Shown here piece after piece: positions 757 to 18,111 of a stretch of 24,000 nucleotides of DNA. The position numbers and the translations under genes were made by a program. The DNA is from Vibrio panuliri (GTDB lineage: Bacteria; Pseudomonadota; Gammaproteobacteria; Enterobacterales; Vibrionaceae), in assembly GCF_009938205.1 (NCBI RefSeq), contig NZ_AP019654.1, positions 2,236,540-2,260,539 on the forward strand, read 5' to 3'. Position 1 is the first letter of the stretch. Every line of letters begins with the position of its first letter. The notes below the pieces were generated by a model, which was not told where the DNA came from, ran no database searches, and saw only the letters and a list, made by a program, of their open reading frames with translations.

Positions 757-1341
757 CTAACTTAACTTCTTTTGCAGCCATACTTGGGCAAACTTTAAAT
801 CATTATCGACGGTACGCTTAGATACCCCCTTCAACTCAGCAATGTCCGTAATGGATGCGGTAGAAAAATGTTTTAGCTCAAACACTTCAAACTGTCGCGG
901 GTATCGGGCGCGCATTTCTTCCAAGGCGATGTAGAGATCGCGATTTAACTCGTGCTGGCTGGTGAACTCAGCGGGAATCGCCTCTTCCAGTTGGTCAAGC
1001 AGTTGTTCAGATGAGCTGAGCATCACTAAATTATGGTGCGCTTTACCAAACAATAAATGCCACACAGAAACCCGCACATATTCAAAAAAATCGCGACGAC
1101 TTTCCATTGGCACTTCATCATGTCGCCAACGGTGAAGCTTGACGATGGATTCATTCGCGAGCTCCGTTACGGAGCTTTCACGCAGCAGGGTGTCTGTTGG
1201 GCGCTGAGTTTGCATTAAGTTTGCAATGACCGCTTTAATATCATCATAAACATGATGAAATAGCTCTTGGCTTGCATCTTTGTCTCGGCTTTGCCACCCC
1301 ATCAACAGCTTTGTAGCGTGCTCGATGTCATATAGTGACAC
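757..1341 (-). CDS. ECF-type RNA polymerase sigma factor of the Ser/Thr-kinase-linked family (Sigma70_ECF-like)
   Basis: The tracked ORF is 757..1518. The C-terminus has a region 4.2 HTH (SITDIAELKGVSKRTVDNDLKFAQVWLQKKL). The N-terminal core ATKLLMGWQSRDKDASQELFHHVYDDIKAVI matches the typical start of this ECF family. I prefer the GTG at 1341, preceded by GGAGA 5 nt upstream. The residues upstream of it (CCCFLCSSSS...) look non-coding. The start is uncertain (1302, 1341 or 1518). Confidence 0.8.
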   Translation of the reverse strand: MSLYDIEHATKLLMGWQSRDKDASQELFHHVYDDIKAVIANLMQTQRPTDTLLRESSVTELANESIVKLHRWRHDEVPMESRRDFFEYVRVSVWHLLFGKAHHNLVMLSSSEQLLDQLEEAIPAEFTSQHELNRDLYIALEEMRARYPRQFEVFELKHFSTASITDIAELKGVSKRTVDNDLKFAQVWLQKKLS

Positions 1342-1584
1342 AATATTCTCCAAGGTTTCATACAAAGAAGCTATGCTACTCGACGAGCATAAAAAGCAAC
1401 AACAGCGATGTTGTGTTTTGTTAACTATTTCCGTAATTAAACCGAACCACAACAGATTGTCAGCTTGCCAATCATTGTTCATGCAATCGAGGGACGTTTT
1501 TCTCCTCATTTCGCGCACTTTGTTTCAACTTATCATTGGCGCGAGTATCCCACTCAACTGGTCGTTCACATTGAGGGAAGAGAG

Positions 1585-3529: not shown

Positions 3530-4882
3530 ATGTCTCTTGGATTCGATTTTGGCACGGCCAATTGCTGCGTCGCCCACCTTGTTGAAGGCAAAGTGTCCCC
3601 TATCCCATTGGTCGATGACAATATCTACCTCCCCTCAACCTTGTGCGCCCCCAATGCTGAGTCTGTCTCGGAGTATTTATTTCGTTGTTTAGATATTACC
3701 CCTAGCAATGACACTAACCAAGCCGTGTTGAGACGAGCAATCAAGATCAACCGCGAAGAAGGGCTGGATATCCACGCTGACGACGTAAAATTTGGTCATC
3801 AAGCACTCAAGCTTTACCTAGAGGACCCTAAAGACGTTTACTTCGTTAAGTCACCAAAGTCCTTTCTTGGTGCGATGGGACTTAGAGACATGCAACTCTC
3901 TTATTTTGAAGATCTTGTTTGCGCAATGATGAGCAACATCAAACGCAGCGCCGAGGCCAATACTAATCAGTCGTTTGAACAAACCGTGATTGGCCGACCA
4001 GTGAACTTCTTGGGACGCGGCGGTGAAGCGTCAAATATTCAAGCCGTCGACATCTTAACTCGCGCAGCGAAACGAGCCGGGTTTAAAGATATTGAATTTC
4101 AATATGAGCCTGTCGCAGCGGGTTTGGATTTTGAAGCAACACTAACCACTGACCAAAATGTGTTAGTGGTCGATATTGGCGGTGGTACCACCGACTGCTC
4201 AATGATCCAAATGGGGCCATCGTGGCAGGGTAAAATGGAACGCAAAGAGTCACTATTGGCGCACACGGGGCAAATGGTGGGCGGTAATGATCTTGATATC
4301 TTTATTGCCTTTCGCTGCCTGATGACGGAATTTGGTCTTGGCAGCAAACTGAAGAGTGGATTGGATCTGCCGTTAATTCAATTCTGGAATGCGATTGCAA
4401 TCAATGATGTACAAGCTCAGCGCGATTTCTATGCCCACGATAACTTGTCGATGTTACGTCAGTTTCACAAAGAAGCACTTGAGCCGCAAAAACTGCAGCG
4501 TCTGGTCGCATTACATCAAGAGACTCTTGGGCATAGCGTAATTCATCAGGCGGAGTTGGCTAAAATTGCCATGTCAGAGCAAACCGACTATGTCACCAAT
4601 ATTGATTTGGTCAGTGAAGCCTTTGAAGTTGCGACCGATCGCGCCAGTATCGATGCTGCGATTGAAAACCCAATGAACAAAATTCGTGCACTCGTCCAAG
4701 AGGCGGTAACTCAAAGTGGGATTAAGCCCGATGTTATCTATATGACAGGGGGTTCTTCACGCTCAACAGCGCTGACGTCAGCCGTTGCTTCCGTGCTACC
4801 TAATACCGAAATTATCAGTGGTAACTATTTTGGTTCTGTTACCGCGGGACTGACCCACTGGGCAAATCTCATCTATCGCTAG
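3530..4882 (+). CDS. yegD: Hsp70/actin-fold ATPase, YegD-like putative chaperone
   Basis: 450 aa, the same length as E. coli YegD. Shared blocks: GFDFGTANC, VKSPKSFLGA, FEDLVCAMM, FQYEPVAAGLD, VVDIGGGTTDCS, YMTGGSSRS, FGSVTAGL. A GAGGAAA Shine-Dalgarno sits before the ATG. Confidence 0.9.
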   Translation: MSLGFDFGTANCCVAHLVEGKVSPIPLVDDNIYLPSTLCAPNAESVSEYLFRCLDITPSNDTNQAVLRRAIKINREEGLDIHADDVKFGHQALKLYLEDPKDVYFVKSPKSFLGAMGLRDMQLSYFEDLVCAMMSNIKRSAEANTNQSFEQTVIGRPVNFLGRGGEASNIQAVDILTRAAKRAGFKDIEFQYEPVAAGLDFEATLTTDQNVLVVDIGGGTTDCSMIQMGPSWQGKMERKESLLAHTGQMVGGNDLDIFIAFRCLMTEFGLGSKLKSGLDLPLIQFWNAIAINDVQAQRDFYAHDNLSMLRQFHKEALEPQKLQRLVALHQETLGHSVIHQAELAKIAMSEQTDYVTNIDLVSEAFEVATDRASIDAAIENPMNKIRALVQEAVTQSGIKPDVIYMTGGSSRSTALTSAVASVLPNTEIISGNYFGSVTAGLTHWANLIYR

Positions 4883-4971: not shown

Positions 4972-5988
4972 TTACGCCATTTCTTGTGCAGTTATGCAGG
5001 CTTTATAAGTCACACAATTTCGGTTATTACTCTTCGATTCATACAGAGCTTCGTCTGCTGCCTCAGCCAAATAACGGCGAGAAAGATCCCGATTAGGATA
5101 GATGGAGCTCACTCCTAAGCTCGCTGTTACGATGGATCTTCCCGATTCATCATTGTGAGGGATTTGCAGTTCAGCGATCACGTTTCTCACTTTTTCCGCA
5201 ACCAACTCAGCCCCCGACTGTTCGGTATCTGGTAACACAATCGCGAACTCTTCCCCACCTACTCGCGCCACTCTATCGAGTTCTCGTAGTTGCATGGTTT
5301 GTAGCGCTTTCGCGACAGTTCTTAAACAATCATCGCCAAGATGGTGACCAAAGGTGTCGTTATAAAGTTTGAAATGGTCAATATCGAGCATGATCAGCGA
5401 CAATGCCGTTCCAGCACGTGACGCTCGCTCCCACTCTTCAGCAAAGATTTGTTCAAAACGACGACGGTTGTACAAGCCAGTTAAGCTGTCTGTGGTTGAA
5501 AGCATCAACAGCTGCTCGTTGGTTTCTTCTAGTTGCTGCTGCAGTTCCTCAAGCTCTGCCAACTTTTGGTCAAACTCAATGGTCTTACGGCGCAAGGCTT
5601 CTCGCTGCTCATACAACTCAATAAACACCCTTACTTTGCCTCTAAACACCACAGGTTCAAGCGGCTTGAACATGTAATCGACTGCACCAGACTCATAACC
5701 ACGAAAAACTTGGGTTTCGTTCTTTGAACGTGCGGTAACGAAAATTATCGGAATAGTTTTGGTTTTCTTATTGCCGCGCAGCAACTCCGCGACCTCATAA
5801 CCATCCATTCCCGGCATTTGCACATCGAGTAGCACTAAAGCAAATTGATGATCCAGCGTATGTGCTAACGCTTCCTCACCGCAGCTTGCGCGCACAATAT
5901 CGACATCAAAAGACTCCAATAACACTTCTAGCGCAATCAGGTTTTCAGGACGGTCATCCACGATTAAAACACTCGGACGTTGCGTCAT
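4972..5988 (-). CDS. Response regulator-diguanylate cyclase (REC, coiled coil, GGDEF; PleD/WspR-like)
   Basis: The receiver has LIVDD...LLDVQMPGMDGY...FVTA. The GGDEF domain has DSLTGLYNRR, an active site GGEEF and an intact I-site RELD five residues upstream of GGEEF. The start overlaps the cheB stop by 4 nt. Confidence 0.9.
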   Translation of the reverse strand: MTQRPSVLIVDDRPENLIALEVLLESFDVDIVRASCGEEALAHTLDHQFALVLLDVQMPGMDGYEVAELLRGNKKTKTIPIIFVTARSKNETQVFRGYESGAVDYMFKPLEPVVFRGKVRVFIELYEQREALRRKTIEFDQKLAELEELQQQLEETNEQLLMLSTTDSLTGLYNRRRFEQIFAEEWERASRAGTALSLIMLDIDHFKLYNDTFGHHLGDDCLRTVAKALQTMQLRELDRVARVGGEEFAIVLPDTEQSGAELVAEKVRNVIAELQIPHNDESGRSIVTASLGVSSIYPNRDLSRRYLAEAADEALYESKSNNRNCVTYKACITAQEMA

Positions 5989-6596
5989 TTTTCACACTCA
6001 CATAGGCTGTTTAAAAAATCACCCATTTGCTCAATAGGAACAATATGGTCCACCTCCACAGCTTCAATAGCTGCTTGTGGCATAGCTTGCGCTTCAGCAC
6101 TTTCGATTGACTGAACCACTGCAATGCCTCCTTTTTGTTTGATTCGGGCGAGTCCTTGCGCACCATCCGAGTTTGCCCCAGTCAACACCACCCCGATTAA
6201 GTGTTGACCATAATACTGAGCTGCAGTCTCAAACAACACATCGATAGAAGGACGCGAATAGTTCACTGGAGGGTCAATAGACAAGGCAATTGATCCATCA
6301 ACTTCCACCATCATGTGATAGTTAGGTGGCGCGATATACAACGTGCCACGGCGTATCGGTTCTTTATCCTCCCCTTCCTTAACCGTAAGTTGAGAACGAT
6401 ATTCGAAGTGGGTCGCCAAATAACTTTCTACATTTGGGCTGATATGTTGCACCAACAGGATTGGTAGACAGAAGCTTGATTTTAGCTCCCGCAATACCTT
6501 TTCCATTGCCGCTAAACCACCCGCTGATGCACCAATCACAACAGCATGATATTGCTCATTACCACAGTTGATTGCCACACGACCTCCGCTACACAT
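5985..6596 (-). CDS. cheB: CheB-type glutamate methylesterase/glutamine deamidase, catalytic domain only (no receiver)
   Basis: 203 aa. Catalytic-triad contexts are present: VIGASAGG (Ser), LLVQHISP (His), LTGANSDGAQG (Asp). There is no N-terminal REC domain. It overlaps cheR by 8 nt and the GGDEF gene by 4 nt. Confidence 0.85.
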   Translation of the reverse strand: MCSGGRVAINCGNEQYHAVVIGASAGGLAAMEKVLRELKSSFCLPILLVQHISPNVESYLATHFEYRSQLTVKEGEDKEPIRRGTLYIAPPNYHMMVEVDGSIALSIDPPVNYSRPSIDVLFETAAQYYGQHLIGVVLTGANSDGAQGLARIKQKGGIAVVQSIESAEAQAMPQAAIEAVEVDHIVPIEQMGDFLNSLCECEK

Positions 6597-7437
6597 TCAA
6601 CGCTGAGCGCTTCTTGCGATAAATCTTCTCTCGTTCAGAGACCAACTCAAACTTATCGGCGACATCGGCGAAGCGCAGGCTCTCTTTGGAACCCAAACAT
6701 AAAAAACCACCTGGGACTAAGCTGTCGTAGAAAAGCTGAAACACCTTGTTTTGCAACTCTCGATTAAAGTAAATCAAAACGTTACGACAGAAGATAACAT
6801 TCATTTCGCCAAAAACACCGTCTGTGGCTAAGTTGTGCGGCGTAAACAGTACTCGCTCGCGTAAACGGCTCTGCATAATGACGTGGTCATAATCAGCAGT
6901 GTAATAGTCAGAGAAAGAGTTAATCCCCCCGGCCGCCTGATAGTTTGTGGTGTACTGACGCACCAGATCCATCGGGTAGATCCCTTTTTGCGCCTTCTCT
7001 AAAATGGCTTCATTAAAGTCCGTTGCATACAACTGTGCCCGCGAGGTCATGCCTTCTTCTTCAAGCAAGATCCCCATAGAGTAGACTTCTTGACCAGCAG
7101 AACACCCTGCATGCCAAATCTTGACGAATGGATAGGTGTGTAGATGCGGCAAAACGATCTCACGCACTTTCTTATAGAACCAAGGATCACGAAACATCTC
7201 AGTAACGTTAATCGAGAGATCCAGCAAAATCTGTTCGAAAAAGCGTGGGTCGTAAATCACCTTATGTTGCATTTGCGAATAGTTCGTCATGCCCTCTAAT
7301 GCGCGTCGATACTCTAAGCGACGGCGAGTATGCGCCACAGAGTACTCACGAAAATCGTAGCCGTACTTGCGATAAATCGCTTCTAGAAACAGTTGGATTT
7401 CCAATTGCTCGTCGTCAATGTCAATCACATCACTCAT
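6589..7437 (-). CDS. cheR: CheR-type protein-glutamate O-methyltransferase
   Basis: 282 aa. The N-terminal helical domain carries TEMFRDP. The SAM-binding fold carries IWHAGCSAGQEVYS, ATDFN and IFCRNVLIYF. The start lies 1 nt downstream of the kinase stop. Confidence 0.9.
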   Translation of the reverse strand: MSDVIDIDDEQLEIQLFLEAIYRKYGYDFREYSVAHTRRRLEYRRALEGMTNYSQMQHKVIYDPRFFEQILLDLSINVTEMFRDPWFYKKVREIVLPHLHTYPFVKIWHAGCSAGQEVYSMGILLEEEGMTSRAQLYATDFNEAILEKAQKGIYPMDLVRQYTTNYQAAGGINSFSDYYTADYDHVIMQSRLRERVLFTPHNLATDGVFGEMNVIFCRNVLIYFNRELQNKVFQLFYDSLVPGGFLCLGSKESLRFADVADKFELVSEREKIYRKKRSALNV

Positions 7438-7438
7438 A

Positions 7439-10400
7439 TCAGTACAACCACACTCTCATCATTGAAATTAGCTTGCTGGTGTCAATTGGCTTAGCCAAGT
7501 AATCACTGGCGCCTGCTTCGATGCATTTACTGCGATCTCCTTTCATGGCTTTGGCAGTTAAGGCAATAATTGGCAGTGACGCATGTTTTTTCTGTTGGCG
7601 AATAGCCTGCATCGCCTCATAACCATCCATTTTCGGCATCATGATGTCCATCAGCACCAAGTCAATATCTGGGTTGTCTTTCAGTTTATCGAGACTCTCC
7701 AATCCATCTCGGGCAATCGTGACATTCATGCCCTTATCTTCTAAGACATTGGATAGCGCGAACACATTGCGCATATCGTCATCAACCAACAAGATGTGCT
7801 TGTCTTTAAGCAAGGTTTCTTTGTCATGTACTGCTTTCAGCATGCCACGCTGCTCTGCCGGTAATGCCGATTCTACTCGATGCAGAAACAGGGCTGATTC
7901 ATCAAGCAACCGCTCTGGCGACTTCACCCCTTTGATGATGATGCTTTCTGCGTACTGGTTAAGCTCTTTTTCTTCCTCACGCGTTAATTCACGACCGGTA
8001 TAGACAATAATTGGCACTCTCGCTGCGGTTTCACTGCGGCGAATGTTCTCCAGAAGATCAAAGCCCGTCATATCTTCTAGGCCTAAATCTAAAATCATGC
8101 AGTCATAGTTATGCAGTTCGAGCTCATCCAACGCGTCTTTGCCCGTTGATACCGCGACAATATGCACATCATCTTCACCAATCAGTTGGCGGATGCTGTC
8201 GCGCTGAACTTCATCGTCTTCAACGATAAGCAAGCGTTTGACCGGTTTGGAAATGATGTTTTCAATGCTAGCAAATGCCATATCGAGTTTTTTCATATCC
8301 ACGGGTTTGGTTAGATAACCAATCGCCCCCATCCGCATCGCATCTAAATTGGCGTCATTGGCCGACATAAAGTGCACTGGAATATGACGCACCGCAGGAT
8401 TGTCTTTTAGACGTTCCATAACCGTCCAGCCATCAATACCCGGTAGACCAATGTCGAGGATAATCGCACTAGGCTTATAGTACTCAGCAAAGTGGAGACC
8501 AATTTCGCCCGTCTCAGCCACGATGCACTTAAACCCGCGTTCACGCCCAAAATCACGCATTACGCCGGCAAACGCGCGATCATCTTCAATGATCAGTAAG
8601 GTCTTATCTTCAGCGGCTATCGTTTGACGGTCATCTTCAATAAAGTTCTCGTTCTTGACCGCCATCGGTAATGGTGGCTCGACAGCTTGTGCTTCAAGCT
8701 GGTCTTGCTTAACGGCGGACATCCGCTGAGAAGGGAGTGGTGGTACTGCCGATGACTCATCTTGCTGAGGCACAATGTTGATGATCGGTTTCAGCGACAC
8801 CTCTCCAGTTGCATTCGCGCGCTCCTTACCTGAGTACTCAAGCGGCAAGACAATGGTAAAGGCACTGCCTTTACGCTCTTCACTCTTGAGCAAAATCATA
8901 CCGCCCAGTAGGTGGGTAAGCTCTTTGGAAATCGAAAGCCCCAAGCCAGTGCCGCCATACTTACGACTGGTGCTACCATCGGCTTGTTGGAATGCTTGGA
9001 AAATCGCAAGCTGCTGTTCTTCTTTGATGCCAATACCATCATCTTTAACGCGGAATGCCACCAAAGACTCTCTTGGTCTTTGCATCCGCTCTGCGGTTTC
9101 TGGCGAAGGCAGCGCAACGCTTAGTGATACCGACCCTTCGTGAGTAAACTTGAAGGCGTTGGTTAATAAGTTACGTAAGATTTGCTGTAGGCGCTGGGAG
9201 TCGGTTTCGATACTTGCCGGCAAGTTGCCCGCGATCGACACCGAGAAATCTAGCCCTTTATCCGCGGCGATATCTTTGTATAGACGATTAATATCTTGCT
9301 CAATGGTTGCAAACGGTACGTCTTCGATATGGAGATCAACCTTACCCGCCTCTACTTTGGACAAGTCCAAAATTTCATTAATAAGCGATAGCAAATCAGA
9401 TCCTGACGAGTTAATCGCTTTGGCTGACTCTATCTGTTTATCGTTGAGGTTGCCGTCTTTATTATTGGCAAACAGTTGCGACAAAATCAGGATACTGTTG
9501 AGCGGTGTACGCAACTCGTGCGACATATTGGCAAGAAACTCAGACTTGTACTTACTTGCAATCTCAAGCTCTTTCGCTTTTTCTTCAACGATTTGCTGAG
9601 CGCGATTCAACTCGCTGTTTTTCTCTTGCATCTCAAGCTTTTGGTCTTCAAGTGCTTTAGTACGCTCTTCAAGCTCTTCATTGGTGACACGCAACTCTTC
9701 TTGCTGAGCTTGCAGTTCAGCTTCGGACTCTTTAAGCACTTTCGTCTGCTCTTCAAGTTCCTCATTAGTGACACGCAACTCCTCTTGTTGAGTTTGCAGC
9801 GCACTTTCCGACTCACGCAACGCCGCGGCTTGCTCTTCAAGGTCTTTATTTGCTTGGGTCAGATTTTTTTGATCTTGTTGTGACTGTTCAAGCAACGCAC
9901 TGATCGTCTCGCGTGCGTTCGCCGCGTCAAAAATCACCGCAGCATTGGTGCAGGCTTCATTCACGTAGCGTTTTTGCAGTTTGCTAAACGGGGTTAAAGA
10001 ACCAAGCAGCACGACACCGATGAGATGAGAATCTGTCACCAATGGAATCGACATAAAGTTCGCTGGCGTTACTTCACCTGCACCATAGTTTAACGTTGGC
10101 GCGTCATGGGTGATGTCACTATAAGCGATAACCTCTTGCTCAACGGCCGCTTGGCCGACCATGCCCTCGCCTAACTCGACCAGATTGAAATTACCGCTGC
10201 GGTCACTAAAAGCGTAACTTGAGGTTAAAGCGAGAGTTTTGCTCTCTTGATCATACAAGTACAAAGCGCCCAACTCGGCACTCATATGCTTAGTGAAAAA
10301 GGTAACGAAACGCTTAGCAAGCTCAGCCAAGGTGAGATCACCACGCAACTGGTCATCTAAGCTCTCCTTGCCGACTTTGAGCCAATCAAGATCGCGTAAC

Positions 10401-11548
10401 TGAACCGCCATATCATTCAAAGCGCCAGAGAGTTGACCCAACTCATCGTTGCGTTCCAGTTTTAATGTCGAGTTGAGCTTGCCAGAAGCGATATCATTGG
10501 CAAACGCCATGCCTTGCTCCAAAGGATCGGTGACCGATTTAGCAAACTTAACTGCAACCAGACCCACCACGGCAATCAGTACTAATGCCGCCACCACTAA
10601 GCTGATATAGAGAAAATAAACAGGCTGAGTCACCTCGTATTGATCAATCTTGGAGATCATGTACCAGTTGTGACCTGGAACAGGGATCTTACTGTAAGCA
10701 ATCAAGACGTTTTTTCCTGCGCTATCGAAATAAACGTCATGCCCGCCTTTGTCTCCTGCTGCTTTCGCATCTCCCCAATATGGCGGCTCTGTGGGGAGAC
10801 GATAACCAACGACATACTGACCATTACCCATGGTAGTCACGTCACTGCGCAATTCAAACTGCCCCGTTAGTCGATTGCTGCCAATCAAATAAGACTCACC
10901 AGTTTTGCCTAGCCCAACCCGAGAGTCCAAAATATGGTTGATCAGTTCTGGTAAGATTTTTACTGCCACAATTGCATGCATTTGGTTTTGCTGATCAAAC
11001 ATTGGAGCAGCAAGATAGGAGACTTGCTTTTGCTCATGTTCGCTAAAACTAAAATCCGAAAACGCGGGCTTGCCAGTCCGCTCAACTTCCGACCAAACTC
11101 GGCTCAATGCCAAGTCAAGACTATTGTTGGAAGCCAGTCGCGTACCGAGACGTTGCTTGTCTTGATAGGAATAGAGAATTTCGCCGCGGTCTGGGCTGAG
11201 GATCAATAAGTCGCTGTAACGATAGCTTTGAACAAACTTGCCCACCAGTTGGTTGTACTCTTCATCGACCATTAGTGATTGCTTGTTTGACAAAATCTGA
11301 GAAAGATTTTTCACTTGCTCACTTTGGGCAAAAACTTCAACATCAAGAGTACGATCAAGAAAAAACTCTTCGATTTCATTGCTACGCAGCAATTGAATCG
11401 CGAGCAATTCTTCAAAGGATTTTTCAATCAAAGCATCTGAAGCGATTTTTCCGTTGAACATCGTCGCAGCTAATAGTGGTATTACGCCAAAAAACACCAA
11501 TATCGCGACAAGTTTGGTTCGGATTTTTATGTCTGAGAACTTGGGCAT
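7439..11548 (-). CDS. Hybrid sensor histidine kinase: TM, Cache-like periplasmic domain, TM, HAMP, GAF, coiled coil, HisKA, HATPase, REC, REC, REC
   Basis: The tracked ORF is 7439..11626. I prefer the ATG at 11548 (MPKFSDIKIRTKLVAILVFFGVIPLL gives a first TM segment straight away). H-box FLANMSHELRTPLNSI. G-boxes DDGIGI and GGTGLGLSISK. HAMP ends ...DELGQLSGALNDMAVQL. Three receivers: LIIEDD..ILDIGLPGIDGW, LIVEDD..ILDLGLEDMTGF, LLVDDD..LMDIMMPKMDGY..ALTAKA. Confidence 0.9.
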   Translation of the reverse strand: MPKFSDIKIRTKLVAILVFFGVIPLLAATMFNGKIASDALIEKSFEELLAIQLLRSNEIEEFFLDRTLDVEVFAQSEQVKNLSQILSNKQSLMVDEEYNQLVGKFVQSYRYSDLLILSPDRGEILYSYQDKQRLGTRLASNNSLDLALSRVWSEVERTGKPAFSDFSFSEHEQKQVSYLAAPMFDQQNQMHAIVAVKILPELINHILDSRVGLGKTGESYLIGSNRLTGQFELRSDVTTMGNGQYVVGYRLPTEPPYWGDAKAAGDKGGHDVYFDSAGKNVLIAYSKIPVPGHNWYMISKIDQYEVTQPVYFLYISLVVAALVLIAVVGLVAVKFAKSVTDPLEQGMAFANDIASGKLNSTLKLERNDELGQLSGALNDMAVQLRDLDWLKVGKESLDDQLRGDLTLAELAKRFVTFFTKHMSAELGALYLYDQESKTLALTSSYAFSDRSGNFNLVELGEGMVGQAAVEQEVIAYSDITHDAPTLNYGAGEVTPANFMSIPLVTDSHLIGVVLLGSLTPFSKLQKRYVNEACTNAAVIFDAANARETISALLEQSQQDQKNLTQANKDLEEQAAALRESESALQTQQEELRVTNEELEEQTKVLKESEAELQAQQEELRVTNEELEERTKALEDQKLEMQEKNSELNRAQQIVEEKAKELEIASKYKSEFLANMSHELRTPLNSILILSQLFANNKDGNLNDKQIESAKAINSSGSDLLSLINEILDLSKVEAGKVDLHIEDVPFATIEQDINRLYKDIAADKGLDFSVSIAGNLPASIETDSQRLQQILRNLLTNAFKFTHEGSVSLSVALPSPETAERMQRPRESLVAFRVKDDGIGIKEEQQLAIFQAFQQADGSTSRKYGGTGLGLSISKELTHLLGGMILLKSEERKGSAFTIVLPLEYSGKERANATGEVSLKPIINIVPQQDESSAVPPLPSQRMSAVKQDQLEAQAVEPPLPMAVKNENFIEDDRQTIAAEDKTLLIIEDDRAFAGVMRDFGRERGFKCIVAETGEIGLHFAEYYKPSAIILDIGLPGIDGWTVMERLKDNPAVRHIPVHFMSANDANLDAMRMGAIGYLTKPVDMKKLDMAFASIENIISKPVKRLLIVEDDEVQRDSIRQLIGEDDVHIVAVSTGKDALDELELHNYDCMILDLGLEDMTGFDLLENIRRSETAARVPIIVYTGRELTREEEKELNQYAESIIIKGVKSPERLLDESALFLHRVESALPAEQRGMLKAVHDKETLLKDKHILLVDDDMRNVFALSNVLEDKGMNVTIARDGLESLDKLKDNPDIDLVLMDIMMPKMDGYEAMQAIRQQKKHASLPIIALTAKAMKGDRSKCIEAGASDYLAKPIDTSKLISMMRVWLY
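9647..9814 (-). repeat. In-frame tandem duplication (2 x 84 bp, 2 x 28 aa) inside the kinase coiled coil
   Basis: Unit 1 (9814-9731): ESESALQTQQEELRVTNEELEEQTKVLK. Unit 2 (9730-9647): ESEAELQAQQEELRVTNEELEERTKALE. My manual nucleotide alignment gives 67 of 84 matches. Confidence 0.85.
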
Positions 11549-11929
11549 AGTCAAATAAGTTGGTTTTATTAACAATAATCTCAAATTCTTGCAAAGCAAA
11601 ACTGCAATCTCAATTACGAAACACACTCATTTTGATGTACGTCATACGAGTCACGATTAAATTGCGGCGCCAAACAAGATTTAAGGTTTGAAACGCGATA
11701 GTGACCACATTCCAACACACTGCAACTGCGAATTAAGCAAAGTAATATTTCACCAGAGAGAGTGTGCCCTCGATTTTCCACACCAAACCGCTATTTCTCC
11801 TATTGAAGCCCCTCGTTTAAACCATTGTGCGACGTGGGTTTGCGCCAATCTATTATTAAGTCGCACAGCTCTCATCTTTGCCGCTGCCATATTGATAGAA
11901 TTGAATAAATTTTAAAGATTTATCCTCAC

Positions 11930-13693
11930 ATGAGCTTAAATAAACAGCACTTTGATATTGTGACAGCACTGACCATGCAAGGGACCAGTATCAATGCCCT
12001 TGCCTCTGTTTTTAATATGACCTCGCGTAACCTTCGCTACGCGATAGAGAACATTAATTTCTATCTCGAAAAACTGGCGATGACACCGATAGAACTGACT
12101 AACGGTGAACTGCATTATCCCTATGATGCCAGCCAGTTTTTTAGTGATGTCGTTGCCAACAATTTTATCTATTCAAAACATGAACGTGAGGAATACATTG
12201 CTGTCATTGCGTTATTTTCTCCGCAAACCCTACTTAGCGATATACAACAATATTTACGTGTCAGCCGCCCAACGCTGAATAAGGATTTACGTAACATCAA
12301 TGAGATGTTCAATAACTTGGCGATTAAGCTGGAAGTTATCGAACAACAACTGCACGTCTCAGGCAAAGAGAAGCAAATCCGCTATCTACAGATGTGTTAT
12401 GCCTCCAAGTACCTATTTTGCAAAAATGAGCAGGTTCACTATCTTCAGAAACGCTATTTCTACGAGCGAGATGTTGTGGCGATCGTGCAGGGATATTTGG
12501 AGAAATATCGGCCATATTCAGCATTTTCGGCGGTGAGTCGAATTGAGCAGAATGCGAACTGCGTTCTTAGTGACGAGTTTAGAAATCTATTTACCATCTA
12601 CCTGATGGTCACATTGAGTCGCATTGAACAGGGCGTGTTAATTAACCGCAAAAATAACGGTATGTTTTTGCAGTCAACGAAAGCGTTTGGATACATTAAG
12701 CAGGCGCTTGGTTGGCAACAAGAGAGCCATCACTATGAAGCCTTGCATCTTGCGGAATACTTCCTCGGCGGTATCAATACCGATGGTTTTTACGAAAAGC
12801 GTTTTCAAGCTGAAAGTTTTATTTTCCAGCTACTCAGTGAAGTTAGCCATGACTGCGGTAAAGACTTGCTGTGTGATACAACATTACTCAACGATATCGT
12901 CAACTATCTCACCACCGCGGTCTATCGGGCGAAGAACAATCTCAACACTCAAATTGGCGCACAAAGTGCCTACTCAAAAGCCTTATTTGAACAGATAAAA
13001 GCGGTCGCTGAGCAGTATCGTCATCATTTAGTTGAACCGCTACGCAATGAAGAAATTGGCTACATTACACGGTTAGTAAATCGAACTATCGAGGTACGTA
13101 ATCAGCAGTCTGTATCACTCAAACAGTTGTTAGCCATTGCGAAGAATCATTGTCGCGAACTCAACAGTGAAGGCTTTGTCAGCCAGTTAGTGGAGCAATT
13201 GGGCGATCAAGTGATTGATGACCGAACCTTACCCGGCCTCGACGACCTACTTATTACACTTAAAGATACTTCTCAGCTAATAACCGAGACCGACTTAGTG
13301 GCCGTTTTATCTTGGCTCAGCGGTGAAATGGAGAGGTTGGGACTGGTCAATCATGAGTATAGCGGTGGAATCGTTAGCCTTTACTATGCTCGAAATCACG
13401 CTTATTTTGCTCAACATGGCTTATTGGTTTGTCACGGAAAAAGTGCCAGTCACTGCCAAGGGATTGCGATTGTGCATCTACCGTTACCAAAACCAATTAC
13501 CGATATATTCCAGCGTAATATTCGTCAAGTGATGCTGATCAGCCATATGGATAATGTCCAACATGTTCGAGCTGTGCACCAACTTCATCAAAAGCTCACC
13601 GAGCAAGGGCCATTCGCCCTAGCTACGGATAGAGAAATGCCACTTAGCAATAGGAGTACAAGTGCGCTGTCTGCCTTTCATCCAGTTGAGTAA
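11930..13693 (+). CDS. PTS-controlled transcriptional regulator, FrvR/LicR/MtlR-like (two winged HTH, PRD-like region, C-terminal EIIA(Fru/Mtl)-like domain)
   Basis: 587 aa. The N-terminus has two HTH units (TSINALASVFNMTSRNLRYAIENINFYL and LLSDIQQYLRVSRPTLNKDLRNINEMF). The helical middle is PRD-like (IYLMVTLSRIEQG, HYEALHLAEYFLGG). The C-terminus has LLVCHGKSASHCQGIAIVHLP, resembling the EIIA-2 His region. E. coli FrvR has a similar size and layout as I recall. PRD assignment by eye is the weakest part of this call. Confidence 0.7.
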   Translation: MSLNKQHFDIVTALTMQGTSINALASVFNMTSRNLRYAIENINFYLEKLAMTPIELTNGELHYPYDASQFFSDVVANNFIYSKHEREEYIAVIALFSPQTLLSDIQQYLRVSRPTLNKDLRNINEMFNNLAIKLEVIEQQLHVSGKEKQIRYLQMCYASKYLFCKNEQVHYLQKRYFYERDVVAIVQGYLEKYRPYSAFSAVSRIEQNANCVLSDEFRNLFTIYLMVTLSRIEQGVLINRKNNGMFLQSTKAFGYIKQALGWQQESHHYEALHLAEYFLGGINTDGFYEKRFQAESFIFQLLSEVSHDCGKDLLCDTTLLNDIVNYLTTAVYRAKNNLNTQIGAQSAYSKALFEQIKAVAEQYRHHLVEPLRNEEIGYITRLVNRTIEVRNQQSVSLKQLLAIAKNHCRELNSEGFVSQLVEQLGDQVIDDRTLPGLDDLLITLKDTSQLITETDLVAVLSWLSGEMERLGLVNHEYSGGIVSLYYARNHAYFAQHGLLVCHGKSASHCQGIAIVHLPLPKPITDIFQRNIRQVMLISHMDNVQHVRAVHQLHQKLTEQGPFALATDREMPLSNRSTSALSAFHPVE

Positions 13694-14693
13694 CAACGTG
13701 ACTTAGCAACTTAACGCAACTGATCGCATCATTGGGATTAACTTGGGTGTAAGCTGAGTGACAGTTGCGGACAGGCAGAATAATGGCAAGCCCCGCGATA
13801 CCGCTACCCACCAAGGTGGCTGGCCCATTGTCTGTACCGCCCCCAGCAAGAAAATCTCGTTGTACGCCGATACCAAATTCATTGGCGACATCACTGACAT
13901 AATTCAATAGCGAATAATGACCTAACGCCATCTTATCCGCGACAACCAAGCAAGGCCCTTGACCAAATAACCGCTGCGCTCCCGATTTTACTTCAAGGTG
14001 CTTTGCGGTCGCGACATCAAGCACAATGACAATATCCGGATTGAGTTGTTCGATGGCGGTTTTACCGCCTTTGGTGCCTACTTCTTCTTGCACGGTCGCC
14101 ACAAAATAGAGATCACAAGCGAGTGACTGTTTATCGAGTGAACGTAGTAGTTCAACCCCTACCCAACACCCAATGCGATCATCCATCGCTTTACCGATCA
14201 TCACACCACTGTTATTTAATTCAAAATGGCGAGTCGCAAACACGGCACTGTCGCCAATTTGAATCCCCATAGTGATGACTTCTTCGCGACTACACGCACC
14301 AACATCAAGCCATAAATCATCAATGCTCAACTCAGCCAATGGTTTATCTGTCCAAATCAGACCAGTAAACTTATTGCCACAACGCGTTTTAACTTCAATC
14401 TCACTATTTACTGCCACTTTAGGGTCAATTCCCCCCAACTTGAACAGTTTAAGCAGACCATCATTACGAATTTCTCTGATCAGGAAGCCAACTTCATCCA
14501 TATGTGCAACCACTGCAACTTTGGGACCAGTGGCATGACGATTAAAGCGTGCAATCAAGCTACCGAGCCCATCAAAGCTAATGTCATCAACAATGGGGTT
14601 AAGCACTCCACTTAATATTTGGCGAACCTCATCTTCGCGACCTGATGGGCCATGGGCATTGTTCAACTCGACCAACAAACTAAAGTCTTTCAT
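13644..14693 (-). CDS. M42 family metallo-aminopeptidase (FrvX/YpdE/SgcX-like; often mislabelled endoglucanase)
   Basis: 349 aa. Metal-ligand contexts are present: VVAHMDEVGF, KAMDDRIG, TVQEEVG, VIVLDV, VRNCHS. It starts 5 nt after the M24 gene stop. Confidence 0.85.
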   Translation of the reverse strand: MKDFSLLVELNNAHGPSGREDEVRQILSGVLNPIVDDISFDGLGSLIARFNRHATGPKVAVVAHMDEVGFLIREIRNDGLLKLFKLGGIDPKVAVNSEIEVKTRCGNKFTGLIWTDKPLAELSIDDLWLDVGACSREEVITMGIQIGDSAVFATRHFELNNSGVMIGKAMDDRIGCWVGVELLRSLDKQSLACDLYFVATVQEEVGTKGGKTAIEQLNPDIVIVLDVATAKHLEVKSGAQRLFGQGPCLVVADKMALGHYSLLNYVSDVANEFGIGVQRDFLAGGGTDNGPATLVGSGIAGLAIILPVRNCHSAYTQVNPNDAISCVKLLSHVVTQLDERQTAHLYSYC

Positions 14694-14698
14694 TATTG

Positions 14699-15787
14699 TT
14701 ACTCCTGACGGTTCTTGACCATATCTGCTACTTCAAAAATATTGCGTAGCTGTCTCGGTAATTTGGTGAGGCTCTCACAGCCACTTGGCGTAATGACTAA
14801 GGTATCCTCCACTCGCGCCCCGCCTAATCCACTTAGGTAAACGCCAGGTTCAACCGTCACCACCATACCCACTTCCAACGTCGCCAAACTGTCGGGGGTC
14901 AGCAGTGGATACTCATGCCCTTGCAACCCAACACCATGCCCCAAGCCATGGCAAAATGCTTCGCCATAGCCCAATGAGCCGAGATACTCTCTCACAGTGT
15001 GATCCACGCGATTTGCCGCAATACCTGGCGCAAGCATCTCAACACCCAGTTTTTGTGCGCAGTAAACGGCGTCAAACAGCTGTTGCAACTGCGGTGCGAC
15101 TTCACCGGTACAGAACGTTCTGGTGACATCCGAATGATAGCCTTGGTACACCACACCAAAATCTATGGTAACCAGTTCATTACGCCCAATAATTCGCTCA
15201 GAGGGTCGTCCGTGAGGCAATGCACCTCGCTCCCCCGAGACCACAATTAAAAAATCGATACTTTCTGCACCAAGCATACGAGCGTAGAACTCAAGGTGCG
15301 CAGCTAGCTCACGCTCACTCATCCCAAACCGGAAATGAGCGAGCCCTTGCTCAATAGCCGCTTCAGTGATTTCACAGGCCTTGCGAATCAAGGCGATTTC
15401 CGGTGCTGATTTCCAGCGTCGTGATGGGGTGACAACATGGTCTGTTGCCACCAATTGTTGTGATAATGCCTGCGTAAGCTGCATTACTTGCTGATAACTT
15501 AGCGCATGAGCTTCGAAACCGAGTCGCTCAATCGAATGGACATCCAAACGTTGTTGCAGAACATTCAACCAGCCATCTTGATCAGTACAGAATCTCTGGC
15601 ATTGGGGACTTTGCTCGGCAACTTGCTGCCAATATTTTCCCGCCACCAGCAACTCACTGCCCGAGGGCGTCAGCAATAGATACCCTCCACTGCCCGTGAA
15701 GCCACTTAAATAGCGCTTGTGGTGCGTATCACTAACCAGTAAAGCATCAAACTCTTGCTGATAAGGCGCTAGGCTAAATGTCTGCAT
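14699..15787 (-). CDS. M24B Xaa-Pro aminopeptidase/dipeptidase (YpdF/PepQ-like)
   Basis: The tracked ORF 14699..15799 begins at a GTG. An ATG at 15787 has GGAA 7 nt upstream. Pita-bread fold ligand contexts: IDFGVVYQGYHSDVTRT, HGLGHGVGL, VTVEPGVY, GARVEDT. Confidence 0.85.
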   Translation of the reverse strand: MQTFSLAPYQQEFDALLVSDTHHKRYLSGFTGSGGYLLLTPSGSELLVAGKYWQQVAEQSPQCQRFCTDQDGWLNVLQQRLDVHSIERLGFEAHALSYQQVMQLTQALSQQLVATDHVVTPSRRWKSAPEIALIRKACEITEAAIEQGLAHFRFGMSERELAAHLEFYARMLGAESIDFLIVVSGERGALPHGRPSERIIGRNELVTIDFGVVYQGYHSDVTRTFCTGEVAPQLQQLFDAVYCAQKLGVEMLAPGIAANRVDHTVREYLGSLGYGEAFCHGLGHGVGLQGHEYPLLTPDSLATLEVGMVVTVEPGVYLSGLGGARVEDTLVITPSGCESLTKLPRQLRNIFEVADMVKNRQE

Positions 15788-15833
15788 ATTGATTTCCACT
15801 CAATTGATACTCTTCGTTACTCTGCGCTTGGCG

Positions 15834-17177
15834 TTAGAAGTCCAGCCCGAGCTCATCCAGCAGCTCATCATCTTTCTTACTGAACACCGATTTCTTCTCT
15901 TGCTCAGCTTTTAGCGCGGCCTCTCTTGCCATCTCTTGTCTATCCATAATTCTGAAGAATGGGTAGTAGACGAAGAATGAAGCGACAATTTGCAGTGCTT
16001 GAACGAATGGTGTTTTCCAGTCAAAGCTTGTTAAGTAACCTTCAAAGAACAAAGGCAGATACGGGGGATCAAAGAACGGTTTGGCTAAGAAACCATATTT
16101 CATCAGTACCAGTGGGAATATACCGATTAGCGAGCCACCCAATACAAACGGAATAAACAGAATCGGGTTTAAGATAATAGGCGCACCAAACAATACTGGC
16201 TCATTAATGCCAAACAAACTTGGCACTAGAGATACTTGACCAACTTTACGATAACGTTGAGTTTTGGCAATCATCATCGCAATAACTAAGCCTAAGGTAA
16301 CCCCTGACCCAGTGAAGTTAACAAATGCTGAGAATGTACCGCCAGTAACGAAGTGAGCAAGCTCTACCCCAGCCGTTTTCGCAGCGATGTTCTCCGATAG
16401 ATATTGGACAAAAATCGGCGATAGAATTGGGCTAAGCACGGCCGAGTGGATACCAAAGAACCAGAACAACAGACGCAACATAATGACAAACCAGACCACC
16501 CACAGATTGTCTAAGCTGCCAACCACAGGCGCCAGTACCTGCATTAAGATCTCTGGTAGCAGCAAGCCACCGGTCCATTGAGCAATAAAGTAACGGGCAG
16601 AAACAAACAGAACGGCGATAAAAGCAGTCGGAGTGATTAATTCGAATGAGCTTGAAACGAAATCAGGCACACCTTCTGGCATTCTGATCACCAGCCTCTT
16701 TTCGGTAAAGAATCGATAGATCTCAACACTGGCAATCGCGACAAATATGGCGGTAAATAAGCCTTTTGAATCAAAGAAGCGAATATCAAGTGAGCCATCA
16801 GGATTCACTGAGGTGGTCATGATCAAATAAGCAAAAAGGGATAGGGCCACCGCACCAACTGTGTATATTTTGTAGCCTTCACTTAGAAAATAAGCGATTG
16901 CTATCACAGTGTAAATGGCGATAAAACCGAGTGAAAATTTAATTAAAAGATCGATAAGATAAGTGTTATTAATAAACCACTCTTGCACCGCAGCCGAATC
17001 AGAAAATACGTTTTTAAGTGCTTTTAATGGATAAGCCATCGAGCCGAGCAATAGGATTGGCGTTAATACAACCATGCCTTTTTTCACAGCACTAAGATGG
17101 ACTTGCTTATCTATTTTTTCTGCTATTGGCAGTAATATACTGCTGAGCAGCTTTTCAAAAGATGCGAATAGGCTCAT
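15834..17177 (-). CDS. PTS EIIC permease, lactose/cellobiose (Lac/Chb) family
   Basis: The tracked ORF is 15834..17192. I prefer the ATG at 17177, which has AAGG 8 nt upstream. It is polytopic and carries family motifs (FWFFGIHS, SLFGINEPVLFGAPIILNP). Confidence 0.9.
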   Translation of the reverse strand: MSLFASFEKLLSSILLPIAEKIDKQVHLSAVKKGMVVLTPILLLGSMAYPLKALKNVFSDSAAVQEWFINNTYLIDLLIKFSLGFIAIYTVIAIAYFLSEGYKIYTVGAVALSLFAYLIMTTSVNPDGSLDIRFFDSKGLFTAIFVAIASVEIYRFFTEKRLVIRMPEGVPDFVSSSFELITPTAFIAVLFVSARYFIAQWTGGLLLPEILMQVLAPVVGSLDNLWVVWFVIMLRLLFWFFGIHSAVLSPILSPIFVQYLSENIAAKTAGVELAHFVTGGTFSAFVNFTGSGVTLGLVIAMMIAKTQRYRKVGQVSLVPSLFGINEPVLFGAPIILNPILFIPFVLGGSLIGIFPLVLMKYGFLAKPFFDPPYLPLFFEGYLTSFDWKTPFVQALQIVASFFVYYPFFRIMDRQEMAREAALKAEQEKKSVFSKKDDELLDELGLDF

Positions 17178-17208
17178 ATACGTAACCTTCATTCATTATT
17201 ATAGGTAA

Positions 17209-17230
17209 CACCTGCGTGTTTTCGCAGGTG
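17209..17230 (-). other. Intercistronic stem-loop between the EIIB and EIIC genes
   Basis: CACCTGCG-tgtttt-CGCAGGTG is an 8-bp perfect stem in the 72-nt gap. There is no convincing U-tract on the transcribed strand. Confidence 0.3.
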
Positions 17231-17249
17231 GTAGGGAGTGAGGTATCTC

Positions 17250-17591
17250 TTAGTCAGTAAGACTCATCTGGTGCTTTTTGTGTGCTAACAACGCTTGTTT
17301 TAGCACTGTTGCTCCATCCATCGCGCCGTAAATCTCTGCTGAAAGCAGCACAGATGGTTTATTATTTTCTAGTGCTGATGCTTCGATGTTTTTGTATTTA
17401 TGACTAAGTTGAGGCCCTACCAAAATAACATCAAAGCTATTAATTTTTTCTGATAGACGGTCAACAGAAATAGCTTCAAGAGTAAAGTCTTCAATATTTA
17501 GCTTTTGGCTACCATTGATGGTTTTCTTCATCTCTTCCATCATCATCGTGGTTGAAAAACCACCCGCACACACCAATAAAATATTCATCAT
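17250..17591 (-). CDS. PTS EIIB, lactose/cellobiose family
   Basis: 113 aa. The N-terminal active-site cysteine context NILLVCAGGFSTT matches the ChbB-type CxxGxST loop. AAGGG Shine-Dalgarno 5 nt upstream. Confidence 0.9.
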   Translation of the reverse strand: MMNILLVCAGGFSTTMMMEEMKKTINGSQKLNIEDFTLEAISVDRLSEKINSFDVILVGPQLSHKYKNIEASALENNKPSVLLSAEIYGAMDGATVLKQALLAHKKHQMSLTD

Positions 17592-17654
17592 ACAACCCTT
17601 TGTGGTTTACATTTGAGTACAGGTTAATTAATAAATATTTGCTTACATTCGTCA

Positions 17655-17695
17655 ACGAAACTTGATTTCACTAATATTGTGAAATCAAGTTTCGT
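17655..17695. promoter_or_regulatory. Perfect 17-bp-arm palindrome in the divergent EIIB / EIIA promoter region (candidate operator or activator site)
   Basis: ACGAAACTTGATTTCAC-taatatt-GTGAAATCAAGTTTCGT. The arms are 17655-17671 and 17679-17695 with no mismatch. A TATAAC hexamer lies at 17703-17708. On the + strand the repeat is followed by CGCTTTTT. Confidence 0.6.
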
Positions 17696-17733
17696 CGCTT
17701 TTTATAACGCTTTTGTTAATGTGAAAGCGTCCA

Positions 17734-18111
17734 ATGAACACCAAGGAATATCCCGTGAGCAATTCCCAAGAAATGAATGAAGATTTTGAGAAAGTCATAA
17801 TATCGATTGTCAGTTATTCTGGCGAAGCTAAGGGCTACGCTTATGAGGCTTTAACACTCTCTGAAGAGGGTAAGTTTGATGAAGCTGAAGATATGATGGA
17901 GCAATGTAACGTTAGTGTTCGTAAAGCACATGCTGTGCAAACTGAATTGATTCGCCAAGAGATCAGTGGTGAAAAAATCGTGGTAAGTATGATTATGGTG
18001 CACGCTCAAGACCATCTTATGACGACCCTATCTGAGCGCGAACTGATCCGTAAAATGATCGAGCAAAACCGCCGCCTCTACAAATTAGAACAAGCATTGC
18101 TGAACAAATAA
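17734..18111 (+). CDS. PTS EIIA, lactose/cellobiose family
   Basis: 125 aa. Three-helix-bundle type with the phospho-His motif MIMVHAQDHLMTT (compare ChbA VHAQDHLMT). Confidence 0.9.
   Translation: MNTKEYPVSNSQEMNEDFEKVIISIVSYSGEAKGYAYEALTLSEEGKFDEAEDMMEQCNVSVRKAHAVQTELIRQEISGEKIVVSMIMVHAQDHLMTTLSERELIRKMIEQNRRLYKLEQALLNK

Follow-up and report, generated by a model that had tools for sequence, protein, structure and literature searches.

What do a methyltransferase CheR and a methylesterase CheB do in an operon that encodes a sensor kinase and a cyclase for cyclic di-GMP (c-di-GMP) but no chemoreceptor? The question is raised by four minus-strand genes at positions 4,972 to 11,548 of a 24,000-nucleotide stretch of the Vibrio panuliri genome (contig NZ_AP019654.1, positions 2,236,540 to 2,260,539; hereafter the window), which encode a hybrid sensor histidine kinase, CheR, CheB and a response regulator with receiver (REC) and GGDEF domains. 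Chemotaxis is the textbook case of molecular memory by reversible methylation. The original prediction, made on the DNA sequence alone, held that in this operon the two adaptation enzymes act on the kinase itself, and this claim was supported by genomic evidence, namely a near-invariant repeat within the kinase and the covariation of its motif with cheR and cheB (8/8 against 0/4 kinases). The operon is probably a signaling operon of the MAC2 class with c-di-GMP synthesis as its output, in which CheR and CheB would act on the coiled-coil stalk of the kinase. As defined in MiST 3.0 and by Vass et al. (2022), each with reference to Wuichet and Zhulin (2010), the MAC ('methyl-accepting coiled-coil') class comprises MAC1, with CheB and CheR fused, and MAC2, with CheB and CheR separate. 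The idea of CheR and CheB acting on a kinase is the published MAC2 hypothesis (Wuichet and Zhulin 2010), and is not new.

The candidate target lies in the stalk between the GAF and HisKA domains of the kinase. Its heptad register is unbroken over about 125 residues and runs directly into helix 1 of the dimerization and histidine phosphotransfer (DHp) domain, with Leu at position d in 14 of the 19 heptads, 10 of them consecutive, and with polar residues (Q, N, T, E) at position a. Two 28-residue repeats within this stalk both carry the sequence QQEELRVTNEELEE, with Glu-Glu pairs one heptad apart. In each repeat the EE pairs are located at exposed b/c positions, an extra EE is located at e/f, and QQ stands just before them. 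The motif EELRVTNEEL was detected in nearly all of the 120 kinase homologues listed, from Vibrio, Shewanella and Photobacterium to Desulfotalea, Pseudodesulfovibrio and a spirochaete metagenome-assembled genome, in one to three copies at a spacing of always exactly 28 residues. In the alignment of 96 orthologues (mean identity 57%), the conservation score was 0.80 and 0.88 for the two repeats, 0.87 for HisKA, 0.68 for HATPase, 0.51 for GAF, and 0.47 and 0.57 for the flanking coiled coil; the receivers of the kinase were also highly conserved. Since the invariant residues occupy surface positions of the coiled coil, recognition by a partner protein is suggested. The two repeats are identical at 67 of 84 nucleotides, and 7 of the 22 conserved residues are specified by different codons, indicating that the protein sequence of the repeat is old and held by selection. 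Recent DNA duplication was rejected as the origin of the two repeats, as the 17 differences in 84 nucleotides include synonymous changes.

The AlphaFold2 model, made with 60 sequences, contains one 172-residue helix from about residue 523 to 694, which emerges at the end of GAF, passes along both repeats and continues into helix 1 of DHp. The predicted local distance difference test score of this helix is mostly 85-91, and about 78-82 at the DHp end. The likely target of CheR, as modeled, is a parallel two-stranded stalk and not a hairpin bundle like that of methyl-accepting chemotaxis proteins (MCPs). An MCP-like fold-back hairpin of the stalk was considered and rejected, because the register is unbroken, the copies follow in steps of exactly 28 residues, and AlphaFold gives a single helix. 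Among otherwise collinear orthologues (P0001-P0104), the number of repeats varies from one to three in exact four-heptad steps, by which the phase of the coiled coil into DHp is kept. When the 70-residue repeat region alone served as query, a word-indexed protein search gave only 13 short fragments and no architectures, and a full-text literature search for the TNEEL peptide together with CheR gave nothing relevant.

The presence of the motif was compared with that of cheR and cheB in 12 paralogous HAMP/GAF hybrid kinases, that of the window and those of the loci L001-L011. All eight kinases with the full double-EE motif (window, L001-L005, L010 and L011) are followed immediately by cheR and a cheB lacking the receiver, whereas none of the four kinases that have lost one or both EE pairs is accompanied by cheR/cheB. 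The degraded motifs of these four, L006, L007, L008 and L009, are QQDELKRTNSALE, QQEELKRSNAELE, RQTELQQTNEELA and QQKELQQTNEELA, respectively, EE being replaced by DE, SA, AE, TE or KE in the kinases without cheR/cheB. The more distant paralogues L004-L011 have poly-HAMP, PAS or CHASE3 sensors; in each of these eight, the coiled-coil scaffold is the same and a REC-kinase gene lies downstream. In L005, a poly-HAMP locus of MAC2 type, cheB is followed by a kinase-less dCache_1-HAMP protein and then by a second GAF-kinase gene (13546-14880 and 15184-17997), an arrangement that looks like a split sensor.

Two other accounts of the repeats and enzymes have to be judged against this covariation. The EELxxxNEEL repeats might be structural, as a signaling helix, or might dock CheR/CheB or some other partner, and remain unmethylated themselves while the true substrate is another. 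Long conserved signaling helices between sensor and DHp are common, the scaffold is retained in paralogues without cheR/cheB, and the resemblance of the repeats to the MCP consensus is loose. However, it is the Glu pairs that specifically distinguish kinases with cheR/cheB from those without, and helix packing does not require invariant Glu at the surface b/c positions; we regard a purely structural or docking role as unlikely. By analogy with Salmonella PhoP, the enzymes might instead modify a receiver domain, either of the REC-GGDEF protein or of the kinase. CheR is reported to methylate the response regulator PhoP at EE/ED pairs (PMC8546571). Across the MAC2-type operons the partner receiver encoded by the fourth gene is strongly conserved, and all the receivers of the present operon are highly conserved. 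Modification of a receiver, however, leaves unexplained the invariant surface EE and QQ of the stalk and their loss in paralogues without cheR/cheB, and those paralogues retain the same receivers and the downstream REC-kinase gene, making a receiver target, if anything, slightly less probable still than a docking role.

A wider survey was anchored on CheR, with one genome per species, and 80 loci were kept at CheR identities of 39-60%. The loci span Proteobacteria, Bacteroidota, Firmicutes, Cyanobacteria, Deinococcota, Gemmatimonadota, Planctomycetota and others. In 53 loci, cheR has beside it on the same strand a kinase with the strict motif, and in 72 loci one with the strict or relaxed motif. 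Six of the eight motif-negative loci are contigs cut just upstream of cheR, leaving L013 and L034 as genuine exceptions. CheB was present in 65 of the 80 loci. By the use of single E. coli queries, with which weak homologues may be missed, the MCP signaling domain was detected in two loci, on the opposite strand and kilobases away, and CheW in none of the 80; for CheA/CheW as a whole the detection relied on a single query or none and was of limited sensitivity. An exhaustive search with CheR gave 1326 representatives at E<1e-30, and the best 150 of these consisted almost entirely of CheRs standing alone or in short fusions, with neither the stalk motif nor a MAC1-type fusion among them.

The survey bears on the possibility that CheR and CheB are spare enzymes that work in trans on conventional MCPs whose genes lie at other sites of the genome, and are merely co-expressed with the kinase and the cyclase. 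Both enzymes keep their conserved motifs, and Vibrios possess several che clusters and MCPs by the dozen. V. vulnificus, for which 42-53 chemoreceptors are reported (PMC10107281), has a PAS-MCP gene some 5 kb away from its orthologous cassette. Three opposite-strand genes, however, stand between that MCP gene and the cassette, the loci of Desulfotalea psychrophila and Shewanella sediminis have no such gene, and over many phyla cheR is adjoined by a motif-bearing kinase and hardly ever accompanied by MCP or CheW, as counted above. Many of the loci come from genera of Bacteroidota, which are generally without flagellar chemotaxis. In addition, it is precisely the paralogues without cheR/cheB that have lost EE pairs, and the two enzymes score far under the NCBIfam cut-offs for chemotaxis CheR and CheB. 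Proteome clusters with MAC components but no other chemotaxis system have been described (Vass et al. 2022), and the homologues of P. putida were ruled out of chemotaxis. Taken together, action in trans on distant MCPs is improbable, and about on a par with the docking role.

The composition of the cassette varied among the phyla. In nine Firmicute loci of Paenibacillus, Bacillus and relatives (L020, L036, L042, L051, L064, L065, L067, L069 and L070), cheR lies beside a hybrid kinase of about 880-1240 residues with the variant stalk motif EELQ[STAC]QSEEL, and no cheB was detectable; judged from gene content, these cassettes would represent methylation without a dedicated esterase. In Bacteroidota (L043, L057, L074, L081, L083 and L089, also L071 and L082), a gene for a single-domain receiver of about 125 residues is inserted between the kinase and cheR, the motif being EEL[KR]VQQEEL in most of them and CheB being fused to REC in L089. 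Such a receiver could provide the arm of phospho-feedback absent from the Vibrio operon. In L092, on plasmid pOANT02 of Brucella anthropi ATCC 49188 (52460-58363), the kinase-CheR-CheB-response regulator cassette stands between IS66 and Tn3-family transposase genes on a mobilizable plasmid. A close relative of CheR is encoded on 355 PLSDB plasmid records, mostly of rhizobia and sphingomonads, and this, together with the plasmid and transposase setting, suggests horizontal spread of the cassette.

CheR of the operon has the CheR_N and SAM-binding CheR domains of the CheR-family glutamate O-methyltransferases, and keeps the motifs WHAGCSAGQE, YATDFN and CRNVLIYF. CheB consists of the CheB_methylest domain only (residues 19-194), with no receiver domain, and contains the motifs GASAGG, QH and SDG, which we take to carry the Ser, His and Asp catalytic residues. 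Each of the two proteins aligns over its whole catalytic domain with solved structures of its own family, CheR or CheB. Against the chemotaxis equivalog model NCBIfam PRK10611, CheR scored 83.1 bits, far below the cut-off of 435, and CheB scored 164.1 bits against the subfamily model PRK00742 with the cut-off of 293; neither protein is therefore a member by these models. CheB matches positions 167-353 of the 357-position PRK00742 profile and lacks the N-terminal receiver that CheA phosphorylates in that family. The lack of this receiver means that the classical phospho-feedback arm of adaptation is missing. The identity of CheR to the listed orthologues of Desulfovibrio, Pseudodesulfovibrio and Ferrimonas was 71-76%, above the 55-58% identity of the kinase to its orthologues of Pseudodesulfovibrio and Ferrimonas. 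The loss of the CheB receiver and the absence of MCP, CheA and CheW genes could be expected of a decaying remnant of a chemosensory cluster with non-functional adaptation genes. This level of CheR conservation, the intact reading frames and enzyme motifs, and the maintenance of the cassette as a unit in many phyla and on the plasmid records argue against decay, which we consider highly improbable. Each of the rival explanations fits the data less well than methylation of the stalk; they are disfavored mainly because the Glu pairs are lost specifically where cheR/cheB are absent and because CheR is very strongly conserved.

The features of the operon are listed in Table 1. The layout described by the original prediction, four minus-strand genes in close succession, was confirmed by reading the junctions from the sequence: in gene order, a gap of 1 nucleotide between the kinase gene and cheR, an overlap of 8 nucleotides between cheR and cheB (ATGTGTAG), and an overlap of 4 nucleotides between cheB and the REC-GGDEF gene. 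One caveat is an alternative start of cheB, a GTG at 6578, six codons in and 4 nucleotides after GGAGG; were this the real start, a 10-nucleotide gap could take the place of the cheR/cheB overlap. A GTG at 11626 would lengthen the kinase reading frame at its start by 26 codons. The V. panuliri database protein P0001 is 99% identical to the kinase, and its 1369 residues correspond to translation from the ATG at 11548; in addition, a promoter-like site was found upstream of this ATG at 11613-11585. The ATG is favored as the start on these two grounds. Overall, the promoter and terminator scan gave fewer sites than, or no more than, in shuffled sequence. The absence of MCP, CheA, CheW and CheY genes, also noted in the prediction, held for the four genes and for the 16 other large open reading frames of the window, the products of which include an extracytoplasmic function (ECF) sigma factor, a glutathione S-transferase, an Hsp70-like protein, a PRD regulator, peptidases, a cellobiose-type phosphotransferase system (PTS), aminotransferases, a universal stress (Usp) protein and a TRAP transporter. 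On one side the neighboring gene converges with the operon (3530..4882, plus strand), and on the other it diverges from it (11930..13693, plus strand), indicating that the four genes form a self-contained unit. The same four-gene cassette occurs in unrelated genomic surroundings in V. vulnificus, Desulfotalea psychrophila and Shewanella sediminis, so that the grouping is not due to chance.

Table 1. Genes, domains and candidate modification sites of the operon (positions in the window)
Feature	Position	Strand	Details
Hybrid sensor histidine kinase gene	7439..11548	minus	1369 residues from ATG
dCache_1-like periplasmic sensor, residues 55-299	10652..11386	minus	E=3e-10, 40.4 bits, under the 45-bit cut-off
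HAMP, residues 336-386	10391..10543	minus	Pfam
GAF, residues 405-540	9929..10336	minus	Pfam; alpha/beta GAF fold in AlphaFold model
Coiled-coil stalk, residues 541-667, between GAF and HisKA	9548..9928	minus	heptad register and AlphaFold2
MAC repeat 1, residues 579-606, ESESALQTQQEELRVTNEELEEQTKVLK	9731..9814	minus	candidate Glu pairs E589/E590, E596/E597 (also E599/E600); candidate deamidation pair Q587/Q588
MAC repeat 2, residues 607-634, ESEAELQAQQEELRVTNEELEERTKALE	9647..9730	minus	candidate Glu pairs E617/E618, E624/E625 (also E627/E628); candidate deamidation pair Q615/Q616
HisKA (DHp), residues 668-735, H-box SHELRTP, phospho-acceptor H677	9344..9547	minus	Pfam and motif
HATPase_c, residues 783-904	8837..9202	minus	Pfam
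Three tandem receivers, residues ~980-1096, ~1102-1222, ~1252-1364	7457..8611	minus	three Response_reg stretches
cheR	6589..7437	minus	282 residues
cheB	5985..6596	minus	203 residues
REC-GGDEF gene	4972..5988	minus	338 residues

The kinase consists, in order, of a first transmembrane segment, the dCache-like periplasmic domain, a second transmembrane segment, HAMP, GAF, the coiled coil with the MAC repeats, HisKA, HATPase_c and three receivers. Of the predicted set of a Cache-like sensor, HAMP, GAF and three tandem receivers, the last three stood as proposed; the Cache-like domain holds weakly, as dCache_1 is matched over its full length but the score of 40.4 bits falls slightly under the 45-bit cut-off. 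Hydrophobic segments at about residues 12-33 and 306-331 lie on either side of this domain, and most of the kinase orthologues have a precomputed PF02743 match. The phospho-acceptor Asp residues of the kinase receivers are D1032, D1154 and D1301, and the acidic pocket, the phospho-acceptor Asp, Thr/Ser and Lys are kept in all four receivers, the three of the kinase and that of the REC-GGDEF protein.

The last gene, predicted to encode a diguanylate cyclase with intact GGEEF and RxxD sites, proved to have both: GGEEF at residues 244-248 and the I-site RELD at 235-238, five residues upstream. The protein is composed of Response_reg (7-115), a coiled-coil linker and GGDEF (165-324, E=2.6e-49), and D55 is the phospho-acceptor of the receiver. 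By its motifs (GG[DE]EF, RxxD and the receiver Asp), it is predicted to be an active diguanylate cyclase of PleD/WspR type. In most of the MAC2-type loci sampled, the gene after cheB encodes a REC-HisKA-HATPase protein. REC-GGDEF was found at this position in the window, in the orthologous Vibrio, Shewanella and Desulfotalea loci (n=3), and in 6 of the 80 CheR-anchored loci; REC-GGDEF within the operon is a minority output variant. The receiver of the cyclase is closest to the receivers of the fourth genes in MAC2-type operons (47 of the best 60 matches), indicating that the partner receiver is conserved while the output domain is swapped.

By its architecture and gene context the operon probably belongs to the MAC2 class; among the 80 CheR-anchored loci, cheR is almost always adjacent to a kinase and not to an MCP. 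MAC proteins unite the functions of receptor and kinase (Vass, Bourret and Foster, bioRxiv 2022), and the class was stated to be uncharacterized 'in any respect' (Vass et al. 2022). As in MAC2, HisKA, HATPase_c and the presumed methyl-accepting coiled coil of the operon are in one polypeptide, separate cheR and cheB genes adjoin the kinase gene, and MCP, CheA and CheW are absent from the cluster; the operon differs in that the usual fourth gene for REC-HisKA-HATPase is replaced by that for REC-GGDEF. The MAC1 proteins, fusions of CheB, CheR, PAS and histidine kinase, presumably follow the same logic, in which the adaptation enzymes serve a kinase in place of an MCP. In MAC1, however, kinase and enzymes form one protein, the kinase being as a rule cytoplasmic and equipped with PAS sensors, whereas the enzymes of the operon are separate. 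Similar 'NEEL' heptad repeats may follow the CheR domain of MAC1 fusions.

A relative that has been studied is the cfcABCDE cluster of P. putida; CfcA-type loci of this species belong to the MAC2 class. CfcA, encoded by its first gene, is a membrane hybrid kinase of CHASE3-GAF-kinase-3xREC architecture, which is required for c-di-GMP synthesis by the REC-GGDEF-EAL protein CfcR encoded elsewhere, and the cheR and cheB homologues that follow CfcA were ruled out of chemotaxis. Both clusters have a GAF hybrid kinase with three C-terminal receivers followed by cheR and cheB, and both control a REC-containing cyclase. The sensor of CfcA, however, is CHASE3 and that of the operon kinase is dCache-like plus HAMP; in the P. 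putida cluster the gene after cheB encodes the REC-kinase CfcD, and the cyclase is unlinked and carries EAL, in contrast to the linked REC-GGDEF without EAL of the operon. In Pseudomonas loci of the CfcA type, among them that of P. pudica from the putida group, QQEELKTANEELEEQ occurs some 80 residues ahead of the H-box. No discussion of CfcA methylation was found in the CfcA literature examined.

The Wsp system of Pseudomonas (WspA-F and WspR) is composed of the MCP WspA, CheW-like proteins, a CheA-like kinase and a CheB with receiver. As in the operon, CheR- and CheB-like enzymes of this system tune a pathway that ends in a REC-GGDEF cyclase and biofilm (described in PMC5907407). The operon shares the REC-GGDEF output with this type of alternative cellular function (ACF) system, but neither the operon nor the window has MCP, CheW-like or CheA-like components. 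With MCP adaptation in E. coli and Salmonella, the operon shares the folds and conserved motifs of the CheR and CheB enzymes. The methylation sites of MCPs are Glu/Gln pairs one heptad apart in a helical coiled coil, like the predicted target of the operon. The MCP target, however, is an antiparallel four-helix bundle coupled to CheA via CheW, whereas the stalk of the operon kinase is modeled as two-stranded and upstream of DHp, and in the operon CheB is without a regulatory receiver and both enzymes are far below the chemotaxis-family cut-offs.

For methylation of the stalk, we infer the following scheme, including the methylation itself, its sites, its effect on the kinase, the route of phosphotransfer and adaptation. 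The dCache-like domain would sense a periplasmic ligand, and GAF possibly a cytoplasmic cue; the signal would be relayed along the long, parallel coiled coil of the stalk to the DHp/H677 autokinase. D55 of the REC-GGDEF protein would then be phosphorylated, either directly from H677 or via an unlinked histidine phosphotransfer (HPt) protein, and c-di-GMP synthesis thereby switched on, while the intact I-site would allow product inhibition of the cyclase and the three attached receivers of the kinase might serve as intramolecular sinks or regulators. CheR would methylate the Glu pairs on the exposed b/c (and e/f) faces, E589/590, E596/597, E617/618 and E624/625; the receiver-less CheB would strip the methyl groups and may deamidate Q587/588 and Q615/616. 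Neutralization of charge on a marginally stable zipper, with Leu at d and polar residues at a, would alter helix stability or register at the entrance of DHp. This change could shift the on/off balance of the kinase, and with it the activation of REC-GGDEF and the level of c-di-GMP, the set-point of which would depend on the history of stimulation. As CheB is without receiver, feedback would need conformation-dependent choice of the substrate, and a possible outcome is slow set-point memory instead of exact adaptation. A broader proposal is tentative, its chance of being correct lying just short of even: that a dedicated CheR/CheB pair methylates the parallel signaling helix of a classical HisKA kinase, that the 28-residue unit is modular with its copy number (one to three) setting the number of modification states, and that the result is a slowly reset memory of the c-di-GMP set-point, unlike the fast and exact adaptation of chemotaxis.

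Several points weigh against methylation of the stalk. The motif of the stalk is only loosely like the MCP methylation consensus, and the predicted target is not a four-helix bundle. The covariation sample of eight versus four kinases is small and phylogenetically non-independent. CheB has no receiver and hence there is no canonical feedback loop, and no HPt domain is encoded in the operon. No experimental report of methylation of any MAC kinase was found in the literature searched, including that after 2022. In P. putida, mutants of the other cfc genes, including cheR/cheB, kept the crinkly phenotype of high c-di-GMP (unpublished result quoted in PMC4951495), indicating that CheR and CheB are modulators at most and not essential to the signaling.

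As a discovery the present finding is modest, since the class, the hypothesis and close relatives have been described already, and the operon represents a rediscovery of the MAC2 hypothesis, as a probable further member of the class with the minority REC-GGDEF output. The use of the methylation device in ordinary two-component kinases has been a genomic prediction since 2010, and the value of the operon is practical, as a Vibrio model for testing this prediction with a simple readout. It is a compact and self-contained example with defined candidate residues, and the cyclase for its easily measured output, c-di-GMP, is encoded in one transcription unit with the kinase. As the candidate target comprises no more than eight Glu and four Gln within two repeats of 28 residues, the MAC hypothesis can be put to a direct test. 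V. vulnificus has an orthologous cassette as well, with 788 member sequences in its kinase cluster. By the same argument, a role is suggested for the cheR/cheB beside P. putida cfcA that was not considered in the CfcA literature examined. If the proposal is true, its demonstration would be the first experimental characterization, as far as we know, of a class that spans many bacterial phyla and hundreds of plasmids.

Two further observations concern the neighboring genes. The open reading frame of the ECF sigma factor (757-1518, minus strand) has a Pfam domain that begins only at residue 68, and the real start is probably further in; it is overlapped by a plus-strand open reading frame of 293 residues (1465-2346) without Pfam match. 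On the other side, divergent from the kinase operon, the Mga/PRD-domain regulator gene (11930-13693) belongs to a PTS/peptidase group that covers 11930-18111 of the window. In this group, a PTS of cellobiose/lactose type (IIC, 15834-17192; IIB, 17250-17591; IIA, 17734-18111) is clustered with M42 and M24 peptidase genes (13644-15799), and such pairing of a sugar PTS with peptidases is an unusual combination.

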